Below, in pieces: positions 35,808-63,148 of a stretch of 63,148 nucleotides of DNA (its first letter is position 1; each line of letters opens with the position of its first letter). Where the stretch lies: IMG/VR virus record IMGVR_UViG_3300046804_003073, positions 1-63,148 of that record; one strand, 5' to 3'. Both the position numbers and the translations under genes were made by a program. The notes under the pieces were generated by a model, which worked only from the letters and a program-made list of their open reading frames with translations, was not told the DNA's origin and did no database searches. Origin of the DNA: a virus (Duplodnaviria; Caudoviricetes).

Positions 35808-36161
35808 ATGATTAACCTTTCCAAAGTTGACAATTTCCCTGAACTTTCTCGTTCGGGCAGAGTGAGCAACGAACTTCAGCAAATCATCAATGCTTTGGTT
35901 GATTCTTCAACTAATGGTGATCGCTTTGCATTGACTGGTATTGAGCCTGGTAAGGCTTATAACTCAATGCAGCAGCGTATTCGTGCTCAGGCTAAGAAGT
36001 TGAACCTTAAGGTTGTTATCCGCTTTGATGCCAACGAAAAGAAACTGTATTTCAAGGCTACTAGCGAGAATGCAAATGCTCAGACTACTGCAAAGACTGA
36101 AGTTAAGACTTCTGATATCAAGGCGATCAAGACTCAGACTAGCAAGCCTGTTAGCAAGTAA
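35808..36161 (+). CDS. Small basic protein; possible distant paralog of the 59-60.6 kb triplicated family
   Basis: Own extended -10 (TGGTATCTT), RBS and terminator; 'SRSGR...INAL...GDRFAL...QQRIRAQAKKLNL'. Confidence 0.65.
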   Translation: MINLSKVDNFPELSRSGRVSNELQQIINALVDSSTNGDRFALTGIEPGKAYNSMQQRIRAQAKKLNLKVVIRFDANEKKLYFKATSENANAQTTAKTEVKTSDIKAIKTQTSKPVSK

Positions 36162-37231: not shown

Positions 37232-37270
37232 CTCTTAACGTTAGAAAGTTTATCGTTCTAACGTTAGAAC
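37232..37270. repeat. Outlying pair of (C/T)TAACGTTAGA palindromes
   Basis: TTAACGTTAGA and TCTAACGTTAGA in the intergenic gap before the accessory region. Confidence 0.7.
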
Positions 37271-37490: not shown

Positions 37491-37871
37491 ATGAGTGACC
37501 TAGATAGAGCGTGTGACGAAATGGTTGGGAAAAGTGTTACCGTTGCCGGTGAGGATTACGGTCGCATTATGCGTTGGGTTAGAGTTGAGAACAACGATAA
37601 GACAATAAATGTGTTTGTCTTTTCATCTGGCCGGAAAGTTGAGGCTATGAGTTTGATTGATTATGTAAAGAACAAAGTGTATTATCCTTCCGGTATGAGT
37701 TCTGTTTATCGCCGGCGTAAGGCTAAGACAAAATCAACAGGTCGTCCTGTGTTTCCTACAAGCATTAGGAATACAGCGGTATTTAGCAGTAATGTTATGC
37801 CTCGACCTTTGCCTCACGAACAAGAACTAAACAATAAGCTCAAGAACAAGAAAGGCAGCAAGAATGTCTGA
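37491..37871 (+). CDS. Hypothetical protein
   Basis: GGAAAGGGG RBS; first gene of the accessory block. Confidence 0.6.
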   Translation: MSDLDRACDEMVGKSVTVAGEDYGRIMRWVRVENNDKTINVFVFSSGRKVEAMSLIDYVKNKVYYPSGMSSVYRRRKAKTKSTGRPVFPTSIRNTAVFSSNVMPRPLPHEQELNNKLKNKKGSKNV

Positions 37872-38412
37872 CGAATTAGGTTATGAAGTAATAGATGCCT
37901 CGCAAGTAGAGTTTGTGCGTGGTCGTCGCAATAAGTTGGGGAATGGTGATAACTTTATTCCTGCCCCTGTGTTTGGAATGAGTAATAGTGATCGTAAGGC
38001 TGAGTATCACTATTACAAAGCTCTTCAAACTTCTTGGAAGCGTAGGCATGGAGTTATGGAAACTCCTTACGATCATCTTATTGATCCCAGGTTTGAGAAA
38101 GAAGAAGAGTATGCTCGACTCTTTCCTGTGACTTTGACTGAGCTTCGCCTTATTGTTCAAGAAGAAGAGATGAAGAAGAATAAGCCCGTCGCTCAGGAAA
38201 CTCCTGTATGTGAGTCTTTGGTTGCTTGTGAATGTTGTGGTTTGGAAGTTGATGAAGATGATGCTGTTCAGTATGACATAGCATTATCTGTCTACTACAT
38301 TTGTTATGATTGCCATTATGATGACTATGTTATGTGTTCTGAATGCGAGTTGCCTTTCATTAATGATGAAGATGATCTTGAAATTTGTGAATCTTGTAGG
38401 GAGGATTTATGA
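37864..38412 (+). CDS. Hypothetical protein with C-terminal CxxC repeats
   Basis: N-terminal YEVIDASQVEFVRGRR matches the triplicated family; four CxxC pairs at the C-terminus. Confidence 0.6.
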   Translation: MSDELGYEVIDASQVEFVRGRRNKLGNGDNFIPAPVFGMSNSDRKAEYHYYKALQTSWKRRHGVMETPYDHLIDPRFEKEEEYARLFPVTLTELRLIVQEEEMKKNKPVAQETPVCESLVACECCGLEVDEDDAVQYDIALSVYYICYDCHYDDYVMCSECELPFINDEDDLEICESCREDL

Positions 38413-45644: not shown

Positions 45645-46550
45645 ATGCCAATGGATGAGTTTGATCTCATTACAAAGTTGGAATCTGAAACCGCTACTAT
45701 TGAGGAGATTGAAACTAATCTTCCAATTAGATTTCACACTAAGTCAAAATTGACATCTATGGTCAAGCCCGACGAATTGAAAGTTGATATGTCCTATCAG
45801 AGAAGTGTTTCTCCAGATAGAGTTTCATCAATTGCTAAGAACTTCAATCAGCAGGCTTTGGGAATAGTTACTCTCTCAATCCGGGAGAATGGTGAACTAT
45901 ATATCATTGATGGTCAGCACAGAATTGAAGCATTGAAGAAAATGGGTAAAGGCAATATTCAGATCAATGCTGTTGTTCTATTTGACCTTTCTATTCAAGA
46001 TGAAGCAAATTTATTCTTGATTATGAATGATAATCGTACAAAGCCTAAGAAGTATGATTTGCATAAAGCAGCTTCTGCTAGTGGTAATGAAATCACAACA
46101 TCTATTGATGCGACTTTAGCCTCGCTAGGGTTAAGGATTTTTGATAGACCAGGAGATGGCAATATTCGTGCTGTTGGAACCGTACATAAAGTTTCTTCTA
46201 AAATTGGATTAGAAAAACTAGAAAAGGTTCTCAAAGTAATGATGGAAGCTAATGGAAGTCATTCATCGTCACTTAAAGCAGAATATATAGAGGCTGTTTC
46301 AGCAATTATTGTACAGTTCAAAGATGTTGATATGAAGCGACTATCTATGGCAATTCGCAACATTGGTGATACGAGTTCATCTGTGTTGAAAGCGAGTGTT
46401 ATTGCTGTTGATTCTCGACCCATTTCAAAGATTCTTGCTTTGGCTGGAATGATTATTGATGCATACAACTATAAGTTGAGAAATAACCGTCTTGATAAAT
46501 TCAAGATTTTGTCTCTTGACGCAAGAAATTACCTTAATGGAGGAAAGTAA
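45645..46550 (+). CDS. ParB/Srx-like DGQHR-domain protein
   Basis: 'VDMSYQR...IIDGQHR...EANLF...N'. Confidence 0.75.
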   Translation: MPMDEFDLITKLESETATIEEIETNLPIRFHTKSKLTSMVKPDELKVDMSYQRSVSPDRVSSIAKNFNQQALGIVTLSIRENGELYIIDGQHRIEALKKMGKGNIQINAVVLFDLSIQDEANLFLIMNDNRTKPKKYDLHKAASASGNEITTSIDATLASLGLRIFDRPGDGNIRAVGTVHKVSSKIGLEKLEKVLKVMMEANGSHSSSLKAEYIEAVSAIIVQFKDVDMKRLSMAIRNIGDTSSSVLKASVIAVDSRPISKILALAGMIIDAYNYKLRNNRLDKFKILSLDARNYLNGGK

Positions 46551-54376: not shown

Positions 54377-54958
54377 ATGACAAATTTAGCGGAACTAAAC
54401 AGAGTTTATGTATCATCTGATGATGAGGCAGTTGCTGTAATTGTAAGACACTTACTGTCACAAAAAGAAACTTGCAATGGTCCAAATGGAGACTGTGCAT
54501 ATAGAGGAATGACAGAAAATATTTATGATGAGCAATATGAAAATATTATTGAGTATGGTGTTTATGATGGGAAATCTTGTGCTGTCGGCTGTCTTGTTAA
54601 AGAACAGTTCTATGACAGCAATATTGAGGGTGAAACAGCGGATAACACATTAGTTCAAGAAATTCTTAAAAAATCTCACCCTGACTGGGAATTTTCTGAA
54701 AATACGACATGGATTTTGTCTCTATTGCAGAAAATTCATGACAGAGTTCCTGATGATCAATGGGTATACGTTTTGAGGCAATTTATAATTTATTATAAAA
54801 GTCCTATACTTCAAGGAAAAATTGATATTGATGACGCATTGGACTGGCTAAAAGCCAGGGCTTTTGACAGAATAGCTACATCTAATGTGTATTATGATAA
54901 TGAAGAAAAGTTTGTTTTAAATGAAATCAATGAAATTCTTCAAAAGAAGGAGAGTTAA
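54377..54958 (+). CDS. Conserved phage hypothetical protein
   Basis: 'HLLSQ...CAYRG...CAVGCL...LQKIHD'. Confidence 0.65.
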   Translation: MTNLAELNRVYVSSDDEAVAVIVRHLLSQKETCNGPNGDCAYRGMTENIYDEQYENIIEYGVYDGKSCAVGCLVKEQFYDSNIEGETADNTLVQEILKKSHPDWEFSENTTWILSLLQKIHDRVPDDQWVYVLRQFIIYYKSPILQGKIDIDDALDWLKARAFDRIATSNVYYDNEEKFVLNEINEILQKKES

Positions 54959-56432: not shown

Positions 56433-56723
56433 ATGAATCATAAGCATCATTTCACCGACATGGAATTAGAATACGTTAGAACGAATTATGGATGGATGGC
56501 TCATTATTACAAAAGCCTGCAAGGTGCAGCAGTTAAAAAGATTTATATTGGAGTTTCTGACGACTCCGATATGATTGTTTGCCCGGTTATTGAGTTTGAA
56601 TTGACAAACGGAGAGACATATTTGTGCGATGTTGTTTGTGCAAATGATCTTGAAGCACCTGGCTTTATTTCTGGTTTACCGTTTGATTCATCGTCAATAA
56701 ATACACCCAAGATTGGTGAATAA
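56433..56723 (+). CDS. Hypothetical protein; diverged paralog of 56173..56421
   Basis: 'YYKSLQGA.V...NGE...PGFISGLP'. Confidence 0.55.
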   Translation: MNHKHHFTDMELEYVRTNYGWMAHYYKSLQGAAVKKIYIGVSDDSDMIVCPVIEFELTNGETYLCDVVCANDLEAPGFISGLPFDSSSINTPKIGE

Positions 56724-56830
56724 TATTCATAAGGAATATTGAATAAAAATTCATGAGGATGCAATGAAATACATCTTACATTTTTTCATTATACTGACAA
56801 TATCAACAATAGTTTTAGCGAGGTTTAGAA

Positions 56831-57085
56831 ATGACTAGAGAATATGAATACGGAGCAGGAGTCCAGTTTATTTGTGAATACATGAGTGTATTTACAGAAG
56901 CTTGGTTAATGACTCATGAGTATTTTGACATTGATGATGCTGAGGATTTGGTGATTAATCACGCGGATGAATTTATCAGTGAGCATTATGGTTTTAACAT
57001 CAGAAATTTTGCTACGGTCGATATTGAGGTTCTTTGGAACAAATACCCAGAAGATGAGGATGATTATATTGAATGGCAAGCCTAA
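56831..57085 (+). CDS. Hypothetical acidic protein
   Basis: GAGG RBS. Confidence 0.55.
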   Translation: MTREYEYGAGVQFICEYMSVFTEAWLMTHEYFDIDDAEDLVINHADEFISEHYGFNIRNFATVDIEVLWNKYPEDEDDYIEWQA

Positions 57086-57368
57086 GATAACGCAAATAAT
57101 CTTTGATGAGGGTGTTTTTGATCTGATTTGGTGTGTCATAGCCCAAACAGATTATGAAGACATAGTTGCTACCTTTGAATGTTTTATATGCATAAACAAT
57201 CCATGGGTTAACTTTGCCGATAACGTATCAGAAAAGCTCAGGAAGTTTGATGAGACCAGCATTTATGCCTATGCTGAGGGAATTGAAGAGTTTGAAAGTT
57301 GGTTTGTAAATGGGGGATGGGATTTTAAAATCCTTGACTATGAAAAGGAAGAAAATGCTGACACCTGA
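57060..57368 (+). CDS. Hypothetical protein
   Basis: Tightly packed ORF; start uncertain. Confidence 0.5.
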   Translation: MIILNGKPKITQIIFDEGVFDLIWCVIAQTDYEDIVATFECFICINNPWVNFADNVSEKLRKFDETSIYAYAEGIEEFESWFVNGGWDFKILDYEKEENADT

Positions 57369-57549
57369 GTCAATCAAAAAGTATGTTAACCATCCTTATA
57401 ACTGTCCATATTGCGGAGATCTTATGATTGAGGCTATAGATCGGGACTATGAATTGGAGGTTATTTCCCAGAAGTGTAGGTGTTTAGCCTGCGAAAAGGT
57501 CTGGGTTGAGATCTTCAAACTGGTCGATATAGAGGAAGGCTTTGAATGA
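57355..57549 (+). CDS. Zinc-ribbon protein
   Basis: CPYC...CLAC. Confidence 0.55.
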   Translation: MLTPESIKKYVNHPYNCPYCGDLMIEAIDRDYELEVISQKCRCLACEKVWVEIFKLVDIEEGFE

Positions 57550-57693
57550 TGTTTTGTGAGGACTGTAATAAGTTAAGCGTTGTCCTTTTGGATGATGCCA
57601 GAGATAACGGTATCGATCCCTATTGGGTCGAGATTGAGTGTCTTGATTGTGATAGTAGATGGGTCCAGGATTGGATCCAGGGTGGCGAAAATA

Positions 57694-57969
57694 GTGACTA
57701 AGAAAAGCGGAAAGAGAAGAAAATTGAAGATTGTGAGGGTAGAAGCAAATGTCATCAAAGTGGATTTCAGGGAGAAAAAGATGTCGGAAGAGGAAAAGCG
57801 GGTCAATGAGTATCTGGAAAAGAACGGATATGAATCTGTTGAGGAATGGGCTTTAGACTCAGATTGCTGGTATGACGATGATGGGGGTATTTGGTATGAC
57901 GAGGATAACATTGAGATAGATATACATCAAAAGCTTTGGTATGTCGTTGACTCTCTGGATGATAGATAA
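57694..57969 (+). CDS. Hypothetical protein (start uncertain)
   Basis: 'GYESVEEWALDSD'; last + strand gene before a long gap. Confidence 0.45.
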   Translation: MTKKSGKRRKLKIVRVEANVIKVDFREKKMSEEEKRVNEYLEKNGYESVEEWALDSDCWYDDDGGIWYDEDNIEIDIHQKLWYVVDSLDDR

Positions 57970-58963
57970 CAATCCGGGCGGAAAAGAAATAATATGATAT
58001 ATATATACTCAGAATCTCATAGAATAGATATTCAGGAAGAATCTCTGATTAAGAAGAGAATACGTCTGTAAAAGATGGATACGTCTACAAGAATACCTGA
58101 TAAGAAAGCCCATACGTCTGTAAACAAGGCTTAACGAACGCTCAATAAAGGCTTGTTTTTATTAAAAAGATGGGTGTTCTTAGCAATAATTGCTTGTAAA
58201 GTGCAAATAATTAACGAAAACTAGATAAAAATATACCCTGGGTGTTTCTATCTACCTCTATATATACAATACACTGGATAGAAAGGTAACTCCTTAGCCG
58301 GCCGGTATACATTGGATATACTTTCAAGCCGGCGAGGGGGTTACCCTCAGGATTAGAAACGATAGTAGCTCCACATAAAGGTATGAAGGTATTAGCATTA
58401 ATATTCTTATTTATAGCCGGCAAGATATTGTCTGAATTTTAGTGCGTCTATTTAGACGGTATATTCGGATATTACATGGATGTAATTTCGGTCTATGTAT
58501 GGGTCAATAAAACTCTTTGCCGGCTGAAAATAACTGGATATATCTCAGGTATAGAGAGGGGTATAGCATCGTCTATACCCCCAGGGATTGAGCACGATAA
58601 GGATTAACATTAGGATAAATGTAATCCAAAAGCTCTCCCATAAAGCTTCCTAAGGATTTGGATTAGGATTTGTATTAAAATTTTGATTTGTATGTCTAAC
58701 GTTAGAACGGGTGCTCTAACGTTAGAATATCTAACGTTAGAGCACCCGCCCCCCTCTAACGTTAGAAATTCCTCATGCTATCTCTAACGTTAGCCGGCCG
58801 GCTAATAGCTCAAAGCTCGACTCAAAGTTTCATGTAATTCAAGAATAATTTCACGAAATACAGCAGGAAATTAGCACCATTTTTTGTTTGTGCTATTGTG
58901 GATTTCGTGGACGAGGCTATTCACACAAATCCACAGTCAATTCACAACACAAAAGGAAACACA

Positions 58964-59266
58964 ATGGCACAGAATCAAAAGGGAGAAAATCCCACAGAAT
59001 TTGAGGTCGTCAATGCTGACGACATTCAGTTCGTCAAAAGGGGACGCAAGTCCAACGCCAATCCCGCACTCATTGAGGCACTCAAAGGTCTCAAAAAGGG
59101 TCAGGCTTTGGTTGTCTCAAACATGAAAGCTGATCCAAAGTCTGAGAATTACGGAACTGAAAAGTCCCGCATTTCCTCACAAATTCGGACAGCCTGTCGT
59201 CAGGCAAATCTCACCGGTTTCCGAATCCTTTGGACACCGACAGGCGTTCCGCAAGTCGTCGCCTAA
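58964..59266 (+). CDS. Small basic protein, paralog 1 of 3
   Basis: Extended -10 TGCTATTGT, AAAGGA RBS; EFEVVNADDIQFVKRGRK...FRILWTPTGVPQVV. Confidence 0.85.
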   Translation: MAQNQKGENPTEFEVVNADDIQFVKRGRKSNANPALIEALKGLKKGQALVVSNMKADPKSENYGTEKSRISSQIRTACRQANLTGFRILWTPTGVPQVVA

Positions 59267-59295
59267 TTCCAAATCCAAAGCCTCGTTCTAAGATT

Positions 59296-59326
59296 AACCT
59301 CGACAGAAATGTCGAGGTTTTTCTTT
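59296..59326 (+). terminator. Rho-independent terminator
   Basis: AACCTCGACA-GAAA-TGTCGAGGTT followed by TTTCTTT. Confidence 0.85.
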
Positions 59327-59615
59327 GCCTATTACTCCTAACGTTAGGCCGGCATAAAGGTTCTAACGTTAGGATTAGAAATTAGATTAGCTAACATAAA
59401 GCTCATAAAGTTAGGAATTGAGTATTAAATTTATCAAGTAATCCTCTAACGTTAGTGCGGGTGTAACGTTAGAGCAATTTCTAACGTTACACCCGCCGAA
59501 CCCTCTAACGTTAGACATAAAGGTGAAACTCTAACGTTAGAGATCGACTCCATTTCTAACGTTAGAATGTCTCTAACATTAGTGGTCTCTAACGTTAGCA
59601 GCCCCGGGCAAGAGA

Positions 59616-59645
59616 GAGGGCGGGCGACTTGCGCCGCCCGCCCTC
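59616..59645 (-). terminator. Terminator-like hairpin after paralog 2
   Basis: GAGGGCGGGCG/CGCCCGCCCTC stem. Confidence 0.6.
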
Positions 59646-59659
59646 GACCCCTGCGCCGA

Positions 59660-59959
59660 TCAGACGACGACCTGCGGGACTCCGGTCGGGGTCCACAGGA
59701 TACGGAACCCTGCGAGACCTGCCGCCTTGCACGCGGTACGGATCTGTGACGAGATCCGACTCTTGTCCGTTGCGTAGGTCTCCGCCTTCGGATCCTGCGC
59801 CATGCCTCGCAGGACGAGCGCGTTGCCCTTCGTGAGTTTGGCGAGAGCCTTCACGAGTTCGGGATCGGCGTTCGCCTTGCGTCCGCGACGGACGAACTGC
59901 ACAGACTCGGCGGATACGATCTCAAACTCACCCGCCTTCTTGTCCTTGTCTTCTGCCAT
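59660..59959 (-). CDS. Small basic protein, paralog 2 of 3
   Basis: TGCTAGTGT -10, GGAAGGG RBS; same motifs as paralog 1. Confidence 0.85.
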   Translation of the reverse strand: MAEDKDKKAGEFEIVSAESVQFVRRGRKANADPELVKALAKLTKGNALVLRGMAQDPKAETYATDKSRISSQIRTACKAAGLAGFRILWTPTGVPQVVV

Positions 59960-60311
59960 TCTGAACCCTTCCTGTGTTCTTCGGGATCCTCTCCCGATGA
60001 GAAGAACACTAGCAGTTTCTCTACCTTCTCCCAACTAGAAATCAGGATTTCTTTCAACGTTAGAGGATTTCTTTTCAACGTTAGAACTGGGTCGAAGCCG
60101 GCCTGTAACGTTAGGTAGCTACATAAAGGCCGGCTAACGTTAGAAAATTGATTGACAATACATAAAGGTATCTAACGTTAGAAAATACATTAAAGATTTC
60201 ATCACGAATCTCTAACGTTAGCACGGGCGTAACGTTAGAGGAGTTTCTAACGTTACGCCCGTCCAGCGCTCTAACGTTAGAGTGTTCTAACGTTAGATAG
60301 TCCCACCGAAA

Positions 60312-60343
60312 CAAGCCCGACGCTAACGATAGCGTCGGGCTTG
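60312..60343 (-). terminator. Terminator-like hairpin after paralog 3
   Basis: CAAGCCCGACGCTA-ACGA-TAGCGTCGGGCTTG. Confidence 0.65.
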
Positions 60344-60368
60344 CTCGCCGGTCTTTGCGCTAGGGGGA

Positions 60369-60650
60369 TTAGCGAACGACCTGCGGAACTCCGGTGGGTG
60401 TCCAGAGGATTCGGAAGTCAGCGATTCCTGCTGACTTACACGCTGTCCGAATCTGGGAAGAGATTCGGGACTTGTCGGTGGCGTATGTGTCCGACTTGGG
60501 ATTCTGTGCCAGACTCTTCAATACCAGAGCCTGACCCTTGCCCAACTTGCCAAGCGCACCGACCAGTTCGGGATTCACGCTTGCTTTGCGACCACGACGA
60601 ACGAACTGAATGTCCGACGCGCTCACCACCTCATACTCTTTGTCTGCCAT
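60369..60650 (-). CDS. Small basic protein, paralog 3 of 3
   Basis: TGCTAGTGT -10, GAAAGGG RBS; same motifs as paralog 1. Confidence 0.85.
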   Translation of the reverse strand: MADKEYEVVSASDIQFVRRGRKASVNPELVGALGKLGKGQALVLKSLAQNPKSDTYATDKSRISSQIRTACKSAGIADFRILWTPTGVPQVVR

Positions 60651-61045
60651 TGTGACCCTTTCTAGGTTCTGTCGGCTCCTCACCGACACCTAAGACACTA
60701 GCACCTAGAAACGCTATCCTAACTACAAATAGGGGTTTCTTCCAACGTTAGAGAAAAACTTTGAAACGTTAGAAGCTCCCATAAAGGCATCCCTATCGTT
60801 AGAAAATCCACTAAACTCCTGAACTTTCCTAACGTTAGGCCCGCCGGTGTTCTAACGTTGAGCGTCAACGTTAGAACACCGGCGCTAACGTTAGAGGATC
60901 CAAAAGGACGAACCCCGGAACGCTATGGTGGGGGTGCGCTCCGGGGTTCTAACGATACGGGCTGGAAAGGGTCAGTCCTATCGCTGACCACAATGATACC
61001 ACACGAAAGAAGGTCAGGGGTTAGAAAGCCCCTGACCTGCTAACG

Positions 61046-61303
61046 CTAGGCGAAAAGTTCGTTCCAACACTTCTGGCAGTATCCCGTCATGAAACGCTCA
61101 CGCTGATCTGCCGAAAGAAACGGGAAAGCCTGCTGAATGAGTGCGCCTGCTTCATACGCCTTGATCGCGCTGATCGGCAGGGCGAAGTAAGCAGACTGCT
61201 TACAGGTCGGGCAAGCGCGACTGGCACACGCTGAATGTGTGCTTCCTAGTCTGCCTGCTTCCTGTATTGCTTCTTTCGGGTCGGTGTATTCCTTGTACTT
61301 CAT
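61046..61303 (-). CDS. Small zinc-binding phage protein
   Basis: 'CPTC...LIQQAFPFLSADQRE..MTGYC..CW'; GAAAGGGG RBS; hairpin at 61011-61038 downstream. Confidence 0.75.
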   Translation of the reverse strand: MKYKEYTDPKEAIQEAGRLGSTHSACASRACPTCKQSAYFALPISAIKAYEAGALIQQAFPFLSADQRERFMTGYCQKCWNELFA

Positions 61304-61583
61304 GATTACCCCTTTCAGTAGGTAAGGACATACTAGCACCTAGTAGGTCAAAAAATAGCCGATAAATAGAATTTCCTCTATCGTTATAAAGTTTTTCTTT
61401 ATCGTTAGAAAACCTACTAAATCTGCCGGCCAACCTAACGTTAGAAGCGCAGGCGTTCTAACATTAACAATTTAATGTTAGAACGCCTGCCTAACGTTAG
61501 AGAATCCTGGCGGGTTCTAACGTTACAGTCTCTAACGAAAGAAAAGGCGGGGATCTCTCGACCCCCGCCCTAACTTTAGGACT

Positions 61584-61907
61584 TCAGTCCTGCTCGCCGG
61601 TCTCTCCGAACATCATGTTCATCACGCCTGCGTGGAGCGCGTCACTCATCGTGATCTCGTTGTCGTTGTCCACGATACGCGCGACCTCTTTCGCCAGCGG
61701 TTCGTCAATAACCAACACAACGCGGAGAAACTTCATGATTCCTTCGGTTTCCAACGCTTCGGTCGCCAAGATGACCTTCTCGTCGTCAGCGAACACTTCG
61801 CGCAAGGCGCGCATCGCTGAGATGACCAGATCGGCGCTGTGCGCCCACATCGCGGAGAGATGTGCGCTCCGCTGTGCGTCCTTCTCCTCGTAGTTCTCCA
61901 TGACCAT
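61584..61907 (-). CDS. Hypothetical protein (cassette gene)
   Basis: TGCTAGTCT -10, GAAAGGG RBS, terminator at ~61541-61570. Confidence 0.7.
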   Translation of the reverse strand: MVMENYEEKDAQRSAHLSAMWAHSADLVISAMRALREVFADDEKVILATEALETEGIMKFLRVVLVIDEPLAKEVARIVDNDNEITMSDALHAGVMNMMFGETGEQD

Positions 61908-62202
61908 TCCCTTTCGTTAGAGGGTTCCCCATGAACCCATGACTTCAGACTAGCACTTTCCATTTCATTTCTGACTAGAAATAAAGATTATTTCTATCGT
62001 TATAAAGTTTTTTTGAAACGTTAGAACTCTACATAAAGTTGTCATCTATTGTTAGAAGCTCACTCAAATCGCTGGATGTTCTAACGTTAGGCCGACCGGT
62101 GTTCTAACGTTAGCGAGAAAACGTTAGAACACCGGCGCTTCTAACGTTAGGATTCGGGTTACGAGAGAGGGGAACCCTTGCGGATTCCCCTCTAACGCTA
62201 GG

Positions 62203-62394
62203 TCAGCGATTCTGGAAGTAGTTCGTGACTAACTCGCGGGCGTGACGCGCACCCTCACCCTCACCGTCGCCCAGCACGACGAGGAACAGAATCATTCCCC
62301 TATCGTTAGTCGGGACACTCTCCAACAGGGACTGAATACGAATCGCACCCTGATAGTCGTATCCGAACTCTCGTATTGCCTTTGACGATTCCAT
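62203..62394 (-). CDS. Hypothetical protein (cassette gene)
   Basis: GAAAGG RBS; hairpin at ~62166-62193 downstream. Confidence 0.65.
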   Translation of the reverse strand: MESSKAIREFGYDYQGAIRIQSLLESVPTNDRGMILFLVVLGDGEGEGARHARELVTNYFQNR

Positions 62395-62649
62395 CGTTAG
62401 AACCTTACCTTTCCTCGGTGACCTTCACCGATACCTTCACGGTACTACATAGTCTAAGGGTGAGTCTAGCCTTTTCCTCCAACGTTAGAAAAAAGTTTTG
62501 AACGTTAGAAAGCTCCCATAAAGATTATCTTTATCGTTAGAAGTCTACTAAACATCACACACAGTCTAACGTTAGAAGAACTGGCGCTCTAACGTTAAGC
62601 AGCAAACGTTAGAGCGCCAGCGCTAACGTTAGAAATCTGGGGAGAGAAA

Positions 62650-62675
62650 AGCGAACCCTAACGATAGGGTTCGCT
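62650..62675 (-). terminator. Rho-independent terminator
   Basis: AGCGAACCCTA-ACGA-TAGGGTTCGCT with a T-run on the minus strand. Confidence 0.7.
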
Positions 62676-62681
62676 CAACTC

Positions 62682-62831
62682 TTATTCGGGGAAATACTGG
62701 TCAAAGTCGTAGTACCAGTTCATCACCATCTGGTCTAACCATAGGAACAGGGCTGCACCACCGACGATGACGGTTGTCCAAAAGACGAACCTAACGATAG
62801 TGCGGATTTGGTAATAGCGACGAGTCCTCAT
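62682..62831 (-). CDS. Small membrane protein (49 aa)
   Basis: MRTRRYYQIRTIVRFVFWTTVIVGGAALFLWLDQ...; below the ORF-track cutoff. Confidence 0.6.
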   Translation of the reverse strand: MRTRRYYQIRTIVRFVFWTTVIVGGAALFLWLDQMVMNWYYDFDQYFPE

Positions 62832-62832
62832 C

Positions 62833-62961
62833 TCATCTCGCCTTCACAATTCGGAGTTTGCTCATTCCCCAGAGGTCACGAACATTCTCTACATACTTCT
62901 GGCACGACTTCCAGTCGCCCTGATGAACGACCATGCCATCGGGTCTGATTACCTGAAACAT
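62833..62961 (-). CDS. Small hypothetical protein (42 aa)
   Basis: MFQVIRPDGMVVHQGDWKSCQKY...; GGAAAGGA RBS; TTGACT-16-TAGACT promoter. Confidence 0.6.
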   Translation of the reverse strand: MFQVIRPDGMVVHQGDWKSCQKYVENVRDLWGMSKLRIVKAR

Positions 62962-63148
62962 TAGAGTGTCCTTTCCGTAGTGACCATCACCACTACTGAG
63001 AGTCTAGTAAATCCACCAGCTAAGTCAAGCATTTATTTTTCAACGTTAGAAGCTTTCCATAAAGGCTTTATCTATCGTTAGAACCTCACTAAACTCCGAC
63101 TATCCGCTAACGTTAGACCCGCTGGCGTTCAAACGTTAGGCTGCTAAC

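Follow-up and report, generated by a model that had tools for sequence, protein, structure and literature searches.

Results

Three paralogs embedded in a palindrome array

The window analysed here is an entire IMG/VR virus record of a tailed phage (63,148 bp, linear, completeness about 61%), with plus-strand genes for a tape-measure protein and tail proteins, for a DnaB-type helicase, a primase and a large DNA polymerase, and for glycosyltransferases and a methyltransferase. This report concerns three small paralogous genes, A, B and C (the trio), which lie in an array of palindromic sites and gene cassettes at the end of the window, and their candidate role as readers of those sites. Gene A (58964-59266, plus strand; 100 residues, G+C content (GC) 0.49) is the copy at the array edge and has the same orientation as the main-genome genes, whereas genes B (59660-59959, minus strand; 99 residues, GC 0.62, GC at third codon positions (GC3) 0.76) and C (60369-60650, minus strand; 93 residues, GC 0.56) run the opposite way. 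A first-pass annotation of this DNA, which did not mention the difference in strand, was right in placing the three paralogs and in the four sequence motifs that it quoted, all of which are present in the alignment.

The three proteins are basic (pI 9.8-10.0) and align over their full length with 54 invariant columns, A being 64-65% identical to B and C, and B 74% identical to C. At the DNA level identity is 65-69%, with synonymous divergence (dS) saturated at 1.5-1.7 and ratios of non-synonymous to synonymous divergence (dN/dS) of 0.21, 0.21 and 0.13; all of this marks A, B and C as genuine genes that purifying selection has kept, as had been proposed. They are far more GC-rich than the phage, the GC of the window being about 0.29-0.44 until 58 kb and 0.48-0.52 between 59 kb and the end. 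Faulty assembly does not account for the transition from low-GC genome to array, because a 7,135-nt contig bridges it (56500-59902); an independent contig (L016) and contigs of other freshwater runs hold the same genes as the window.

An AAAGGA Shine-Dalgarno-like sequence precedes the ATG of A at 58964. The open frame upstream of this ATG, which extends to an alternative GTG start at 58898, is kept in many relatives; since the DNA of 58898-58963 is conserved to the same degree as the flanking non-coding sequence, and since one related locus (L027) has no start codon at that place, an extension of the N terminus is less likely than a conserved leader or promoter, and the GTG start is probably unused. 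Gene callers often lengthen the protein to 118-124 residues.

The palindrome CTAACGTTAG has 28 exact copies in the window, compared with 0.02 expected, and 27 of these are within 58696-63116, which bears out the description of the paralogs as embedded in a repeat array. Although 43% of the array is coding, none of its 27 sites overlaps a coding sequence, and of the core AACGTT there are 47 copies in the array versus two in the other 58.6 kb. Upstream of A there are five exact CTAACGTTAG sites (58696-58793), two of them within a longer inverted repeat, and a simple terminator scan finds a plus-strand terminator-like hairpin after A (59296-59319). The A-B intergenic cluster (59338-59598) contains 7 exact sites, CATAAAG motifs and a long inverted repeat (about 59455-59500) with two near-sites, and the B-C inter-cassette module (60107-60296) contains 5 exact sites, CTTTATG motifs and a long inverted repeat (about 60222-60262). 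The putative promoter of B (60006-60082, minus strand) has an extended -10-like element, TGCTAGTGT (60006-14), together with TAGTTGGGA, and putative half-sites, TCTAACGTTG with AACGTT, at 60056 and 60077, i.e. 21 bp apart; that of C (60695-60770, minus strand) likewise has TGCTAGTGT (60695-703), TAGTTAGGA and AACGTT half-sites at 60744 and 60765.

Every inter-cassette region of the array in the window is the same module, with 4-7 palindrome copies each. Read on the minus strand, the module begins with the terminator hairpin of the previous gene, followed by a full site, a long inverted repeat with two sites, a second full site and a degenerate site; then come CTTTATG, two half-sites (TCTAACGTT) 21 bp apart, TAGTTrGGA and the extended -10-like element TGCTAGTnT, and finally a leader with a hairpin, a Shine-Dalgarno sequence and the ATG. 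With TGCTAGTnT taken as the -10, the half-sites would be near -60 and -80. The proposal that each paralog has its own promoter and terminator is sustained in part: a terminator-like hairpin follows A, and the TGCTAGTGT element with half-sites precedes both B and C, but the simple scan finds no terminators for B and C, after which GC-rich hairpins with weak T tracts are present. A sigma-70 scan returned fewer consensus promoters than did shuffled sequences (2 versus 5.4), and the cassette promoters are proposed on the basis of conservation between cassettes.

The CATAAAG/CTTTATG motif occurs at least once per inter-cassette region (58600-63148 of the window; related loci L009, L013 and L051), and is kept in a second group of related phages (clade II, below) despite their other palindrome. 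A long inverted repeat, with arms of about 18-20 bp around two palindrome halves, is likewise found in each inter-cassette region (59455-59500, 60222-60262, 60840-60884, 62100-62135 and 62585-62620); these repeats could be cruciforms or recombination sites. The sole match to Rfam was rejected, being the hairpin of one of these long inverted repeats taken for a microRNA precursor (33 bits, where the gathering score is 75).

A constant trio in a variable array

For comparison, 44 non-redundant loci were fetched (10 viral contigs and 34 metagenome contigs, i.e. 36 less two duplicates), giving 45 with the window; L006, L022 and L045, which duplicate other loci, and L001-4, which are pieces or overlaps of the window, were left out. 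A palindrome array, with at least 4 sites of one type, is present in 45 of the 45 loci, CTAANNTTAG being found in 28 (4-42 sites) and GTAANNTTAC in 17 (5-38 sites), with at most one site of the other type in any of them; the co-occurrence of the family with palindrome arrays in other phages, which the first-pass annotation had named as a check on its idea, is thus invariable in this sample. The clade II proteins, which are 40-50% identical to A, occupy their own part of the tree, and their arrays have the same module layout with their own palindrome.

No locus has more than three copies, and exactly three are present in 22 of the 45, the remaining 23 being short contigs. The 22 three-copy loci all share one layout, irrespective of flipping: a pair of co-oriented copies, then a convergent copy, which adjoins the low-GC main genome at the edge of the array and runs in the direction of the main-genome genes; in the window this copy is A. 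In the clade II part of the tree the edge copy forms a separate, long-branched clade, and within clade I the window and G001 together have six copies, which group with one another, the two edge copies being basal. To judge from these positions of the edge copies, the three-copy number is old, with some later homogenisation or re-duplication.

The suggestion that three copies under purifying selection provide high early dosage finds no support, because the triplication is ancient and the copies differ: identities are 64-74% with saturated dS, all long related contigs have three copies, no more and no fewer, arranged alike, and the edge copy of clade II has diverged as a clade of its own. A division of labour between the copies, or the formation of hetero-oligomers, would fit an old fixed triplication better.

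Among the open reading frames (ORFs) of the window beyond 52 kb, only the trio (in 44 of 44 other loci) and the ORF at 54377-54958 (10 loci; main genome) are common to clade II loci, and cassettes D-H each occur in 1-5 of the 44. The trio comprises the only constant genes of a shuffling array.

Palindrome type and helix residues change together

Across 76 distinct copies, R26, G27, R28, K29, R75, I88 and P96 are invariant, and K67 and W90 each differ in one copy. The earlier description of the invariant R-G-R-K motif as AT-hook-like is weak, since no proline follows the motif. The canonical AT-hook core is Arg-Gly-Arg-Pro, with basic residues on its flanks.

When the 43 distinct clade I copies are compared with the 33 of clade II, the residue sets are disjoint at 11 positions, and these cluster on the predicted long helix: 4 of the 7 positions in segment 72-78 (72, 73, 76 and 78) are clade-specific, compared with 7 of 84 elsewhere (Fisher p=0.0035). 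The palindrome type follows the protein clade, such that motif and candidate binder change together, and the outer bases are C..G with a CG centre in clade I and G..C with a free centre in clade II. The site centre is CG in 469 of 496 clade I sites, and the helix there scarcely varies in any of the three paralogs; clade II has mixed centres (of 345 sites, TA 100, AA 73, AG 65, CA 41, AC 39 and GA 24), and helices that differ between paralogs.

The switch of site type extends beyond the array. In the window an outlying pair of sites (TTAACGTTAG and CTAACGTTAG, 37236-37267) is located upstream of an operon starting at 37491, ~21 kb from the array, and the syntenic place in G001 has three sites. 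In four of five clade II genomes, sites of the clade II type lie some 1.1 kb downstream from the syntenic marker gene, with G006 having none. In the complete, terminally repeated genome G003, 36 of the 41 GTAANNTTAC sites are in a 5.9-kb array, 3 are at the syntenic locus and 2 are singles, with a reversed control pattern occurring twice; in G005, 21 of 24 sites are in the array and 2 are at the syntenic locus. That the outlying site keeps its place but switches its sequence together with some 30 others implies, as far as site distribution can tell, a diffusible, trans-acting reader with changed specificity.

Two proteins encoded near the outlying sites resemble the trio in part. The 117-residue core-genome product of 35808-36161 (plus strand), for which we found 218 relatives and which each of 5 clade II genomes encodes about 21 kb away from its array, matches the trio family in a profile-profile comparison (E 9.2e-5, probability 59%, 64 columns), and is probably a fourth, distant, single-copy paralog. 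It cannot explain the palindrome switch, because in two clade II genomes (G006 and G002) it has the same helix as in the window. SLED was considered as an identity for this 117-residue family and rejected (2 members, E 0.03-0.05, below threshold). The second protein (37864-38412, plus strand; 182 residues), encoded just downstream of the outlying sites, has a Cys-rich C-terminal half, and its first ~23 residues match the N-terminal arm motif of the trio (hhalign E 2e-5, 22 columns), ending R-G-R-R; in its G001 ortholog the arm motif is degenerate.

A protein family with no known named relatives

The first-pass annotation did not recognise the family, and the searches agree with it. A, B and C match no Pfam family at E<=1 and have no significant match in PHROGs (best E 0.16), neither collection gives anything for 15 distant members, and a sequence profile search of the PDB reached a best E of 0.14. 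When 124 members were scanned singly, the best Pfam match was DUF2795 (18 members, best E 0.017), which is below threshold and was rejected. A word-indexed search found 144 clusters, all unnamed or 'hypothetical', and an exhaustive search of 1.84 billion representatives found 81 matches, 41 of them at E<=1e-10. The family is stand-alone, of about 90-125 residues, since the three long matches that might have been fusions (P0163, P0168 and P0191) are repeat or low-complexity proteins. No match was found by tblastn with P0002, P0165 and P0130 in 50,697 phage records (cultured phages), and no relative by a pattern scan of a prokaryote genome collection, the latter hinting at a lytic lifestyle. By these comparisons the family is new; it is found in widespread, uncultured, ~100-kb freshwater tailed phages.

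Two AlphaFold models, based on 48 and 124 sequences, both have a disordered N-terminal third with the invariant R-G-R-K, followed by a helix, a strand, a short turn, a 19-residue helix and a beta-hairpin (in one model, H33-40, E47-49, a 3-residue helical turn at 51-53, H62-80, E86-89 and E95-98). The modelled order of elements is compatible with a winged helix, in which the order is H1-S1-H2-H3-S2-wing-S3. Searches of predicted structures gave, in BFVD, one family member and then DUF7609 rows (E 4.4e-3 to 0.1), and, in the Atlas, viral hypothetical clusters only, with one DUF7609 row (TM 0.51). The DUF7609 proteins are likewise small, uncharacterised phage proteins with recurrent weak structural matches to the trio models, but the DUF7609 Pfam model has no sequence match in the 124 members, even at E<=10, and the link is a lead only.

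Discussion

The proposed role of the trio

The palindromes behave as operators, in that none of the 27 array sites is coding and their place in the module upstream of each cassette is conserved. The trio is the best candidate for their reader, because its genes are always inside the array under the same promoters, because the residues that distinguish the clades concentrate on the long helix, and because the variability of the helix matches that of the site. We thus propose, with a probability of roughly 0.5, that A, B and C are phage-encoded, site-specific DNA-binding regulators of the cassette promoters. The earlier suggestion of a cognate binder is strengthened by the co-occurrence and by the switch of palindrome type with protein clade; what we infer from this context is DNA binding as such, along with oligomeric state, residue contacts and sign of regulation.

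According to the proposed mechanism, the three proteins would be sequence-specific readers of the 10-bp palindrome xTAANNTTAx, with the palindrome clusters upstream of each array cassette promoter, including those of the trio itself, and of one conserved operon ~21 kb away as their targets. Dimers, or mixed oligomers of the paralogs, would put the long helix (P0001 residues 63-80) into the major groove, where K67 and R75, taken as the invariant contacts, would hold the shared TAA/TTA half-sites, recognition of the centre and outer bases would fall to residues 72, 73, 76 and 78, and the N-terminal R-G-R-K arm would touch the adjacent groove or the backbone. Once bound at about -60, at about -80 and at places still farther upstream, the proteins would turn the extended -10 promoters on or off, autoregulation included. 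A, B and C would then be expected to prefer CTAACGTTAG over GTAATATTAC or scrambled DNA. The array under such control is most likely a hypervariable early-gene region.

Several observations weigh against this proposal. The covariation of protein and site is essentially one evolutionary split, and shared ancestry could yield the same for any gene; the test for clustering on the helix treats columns as independent, in a segment chosen after seeing the data. Confidence in the structure models is moderate (pLDDT 69.9 and 76.5 for the 48- and 124-sequence models, respectively), Foldseek comparison of both with the PDB gave nothing at E<=1e-3, and the best matches of the VIA full scan (Z 5.7-5.8) are to the insert domain of a pseudouridine synthase, which is unrelated. 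Winged-helix domains (Stn1 and RepE) score Z 4.2-4.9, level with IF3-C, R3H and SepF-like folds and at values that the tool rates as common for unrelated chains. Four short loci (L020, L027, L047 and L050) may depart from the three-copy rule. The N-terminal arm motif, being present on the unrelated 182-residue protein, may be a protein-interaction module rather than a DNA arm, and a host factor or another phage protein, including the 182-residue protein, could read the sites.

These last points lead to the alternative that survives best, albeit one we consider unlikely, i.e. that the trio consists of abundant early proteins with another job, such as non-specific coating of DNA or the nucleoid, host takeover or anti-defence, that its genes are in the array only because early genes are located there, and that the palindromes are read by a host regulator, by the 182-residue Cys-rich protein or by an unrecognised phage protein. 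Such an arrangement would agree with the failure of fold and family searches to link the trio to sequence-specific binding, with the presence of the same sites at every cassette whatever its gene, with the arm motif on the protein beside the outlying sites, and with a covariation that amounts to a single split. It leaves unexplained, however, why the trio is the sole gene set kept in every array amid cassette turnover, why its number and layout are fixed, and why the changes between clades concentrate on one helix face, with helix diversity tracking the diversity of site centres. The lack of relatives in the prokaryote genome collection has no bearing on a host reader. A takeover or anti-defence role had been raised in the first-pass annotation, and the results speak neither for nor against it.

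A more far-reaching version of the reader proposal, which we regard as a long shot, is that trio and palindrome together form a self-contained 'array operating system', in which mixed-oligomer readers both time the early array and promote the swapping of cassettes between co-infecting phages. Swapping would proceed via pairing of the palindrome clusters and long inverted repeats, amounting to integron-like gene capture without an integrase, with the GC-rich cassettes drawn from a shared pool.

Still less probable, in our view, is that the array is an iteron- or centromere-like element for replication origin, partition or DNA organisation, with the trio as small site-binding adaptors. The density of the clusters (30-40 sites in 4-9 kb), the location of the array where transcription direction flips, the presence of the iteron binder RepE among the weak structural matches (Z 4.2-4.5), and the depth of array unitigs in one run, 2.3-2.8x that of the main genome, would all be in keeping with such an element; against this, the sites have a fixed position relative to a promoter-like element at every cassette as well as at the distant operon, no ParA-like partner or initiator is seen near the array in this 61%-complete contig, and the depth difference can stem from co-occurring strains that share cassettes. 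An RNA-binding role, e.g. in the translational regulation of cassette mRNAs by proteins of an alpha/beta fold (IF3-C, R3H or Alba-like, with a beta-alpha-beta-alpha-beta-beta two-layer sandwich), is the most doubtful option, since, despite hairpins in the cassette 5' leaders and many weak structural matches to RNA-binding alpha/beta domains (R3H, IF3-C and KhpB; Z 3.6-4.4, a range that also takes in Mja10b), those matches are at chance level, having values that the tool rates as common for unrelated chains, a 10-bp perfect palindrome makes a poor RNA hairpin, and the sites are upstream of promoter-like elements, outside the predicted transcripts.

Relation to known systems

The trio as readers of the palindrome would have precedents of several kinds. 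Small basic centromere- or operator-binding proteins that act on clusters of short repeated sites, next to their own genes and upstream of several promoters, including their own, are known from plasmids, e.g. omega of pSM19035, ParR/ParG, and KorB with its OB sites; these are single copies with ribbon-helix-helix or ParB-type folds, and the trio matches none of them in sequence or fold.

Among phages, the closest parallel in regulatory logic is with the stoperators of Cluster A mycobacteriophages (L5 and Bxb1), for which binder and site motif are described as diverging together (PMC6550527; see also PMC9283540 on the Cluster A immunity repressor/stoperator system). As these accounts describe it, one phage-encoded binder there serves some 30 cognate short intergenic sites, which resembles the arrangement considered here; the stoperators of the same accounts are asymmetric 13-bp sites, oriented with transcription, spread genome-wide in temperate phages and bound by one monomeric repressor, whereas the present sites are 10-bp palindromes in one array and one outlying locus, with three candidate readers of an unrelated orphan family. 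Both many motif copies in non-coding DNA and a joint change of motif and candidate binder are found here, with one independent switch.

In its architecture the array has the features of the promoter early stem-loop (PeSL) cassettes of T4-type phages, namely small ORFs, a repeated module of putative promoter and stem-loop, and gene content that varies between relatives. The likeness extends, in the published descriptions of those cassettes, to a hyperplastic region of small, mostly orphan genes with a repeated promoter-plus-hairpin module (PMC2839356, PMC4122927) and to variation of gene content between close relatives (PMC2839356). The description in PMC2839356 presents PeSL elements as sigma-70-like promoters with terminators and without a dedicated binding protein; unlike these, the present modules have 4-7 palindromes each, and a conserved three-gene set lies inside the array. 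A full-text literature search for the palindrome gave no phage paper among its matches.

By analogy, then, the kind of system, a multi-site operator regulon with a cognate binder in a promoter-hairpin cassette array, would have known analogues; the novelty is that three paralogs, in a fixed set, form its conserved core. Should the trio read the palindrome, it would represent a new family of phage DNA-binding regulators without known relatives, with a natural specificity switch between clades and four candidate specificity residues, and would explain how a fast-evolving block of orphan early genes is controlled in widespread uncultured ~100-kb freshwater phages. The use of three fixed paralogs in place of one regulator would, in that case, point to a circuit that has not been reported from PeSL-type arrays. 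Should the trio not bind the sites, these still constitute a phage-wide operator code with another reader.

Further observations on the array and its neighbourhood

The remainder of the array, from 60829 to the contig end at 63148, comprises variable single-gene cassettes on the minus strand (61046-61303, 61584-61907, 62203-62394 and 62682-62961), with the same regulatory module between them. Gene D (61046-61303), which encodes a small Cys-rich protein, is among the few shared cassettes, being present in 5 loci including G001.

In both clades the GC of the array (0.40-0.52) is much higher than that of the remainder of each phage (0.30-0.39), as seen for 59000-63148 of the window and for L007-L014 and L051; possible reasons are codon adaptation, cassettes drawn from a common pool, or repair biased towards GC at a hot spot of recombination.

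In run X2, the word depth of array unitigs (window 59962-63148) is 197-242, versus 86 for the contig over 56500-59902; either each genome has more than one copy of the array beyond gene B, or co-occurring strains have it in common. One contig of run X5 (depth 48) links the inter-cassette repeats A-B and B-C, with gene B left out (window 59498-60265); with 31 letters on the shorter side of the junction and 28 other letters between, it is weak evidence by the tool's own criteria. Run X4 has a 64-bp replacement at 59523-59588. The X5 and X4 variants are possibly cassette-level changes arising from exchange between repeated modules.

Elsewhere in the window, a 301-residue protein (45645-46550) matches DUF6551 (E 5e-16), with weaker matches to a ParB-like nuclease, DndB and GmrSD_N.

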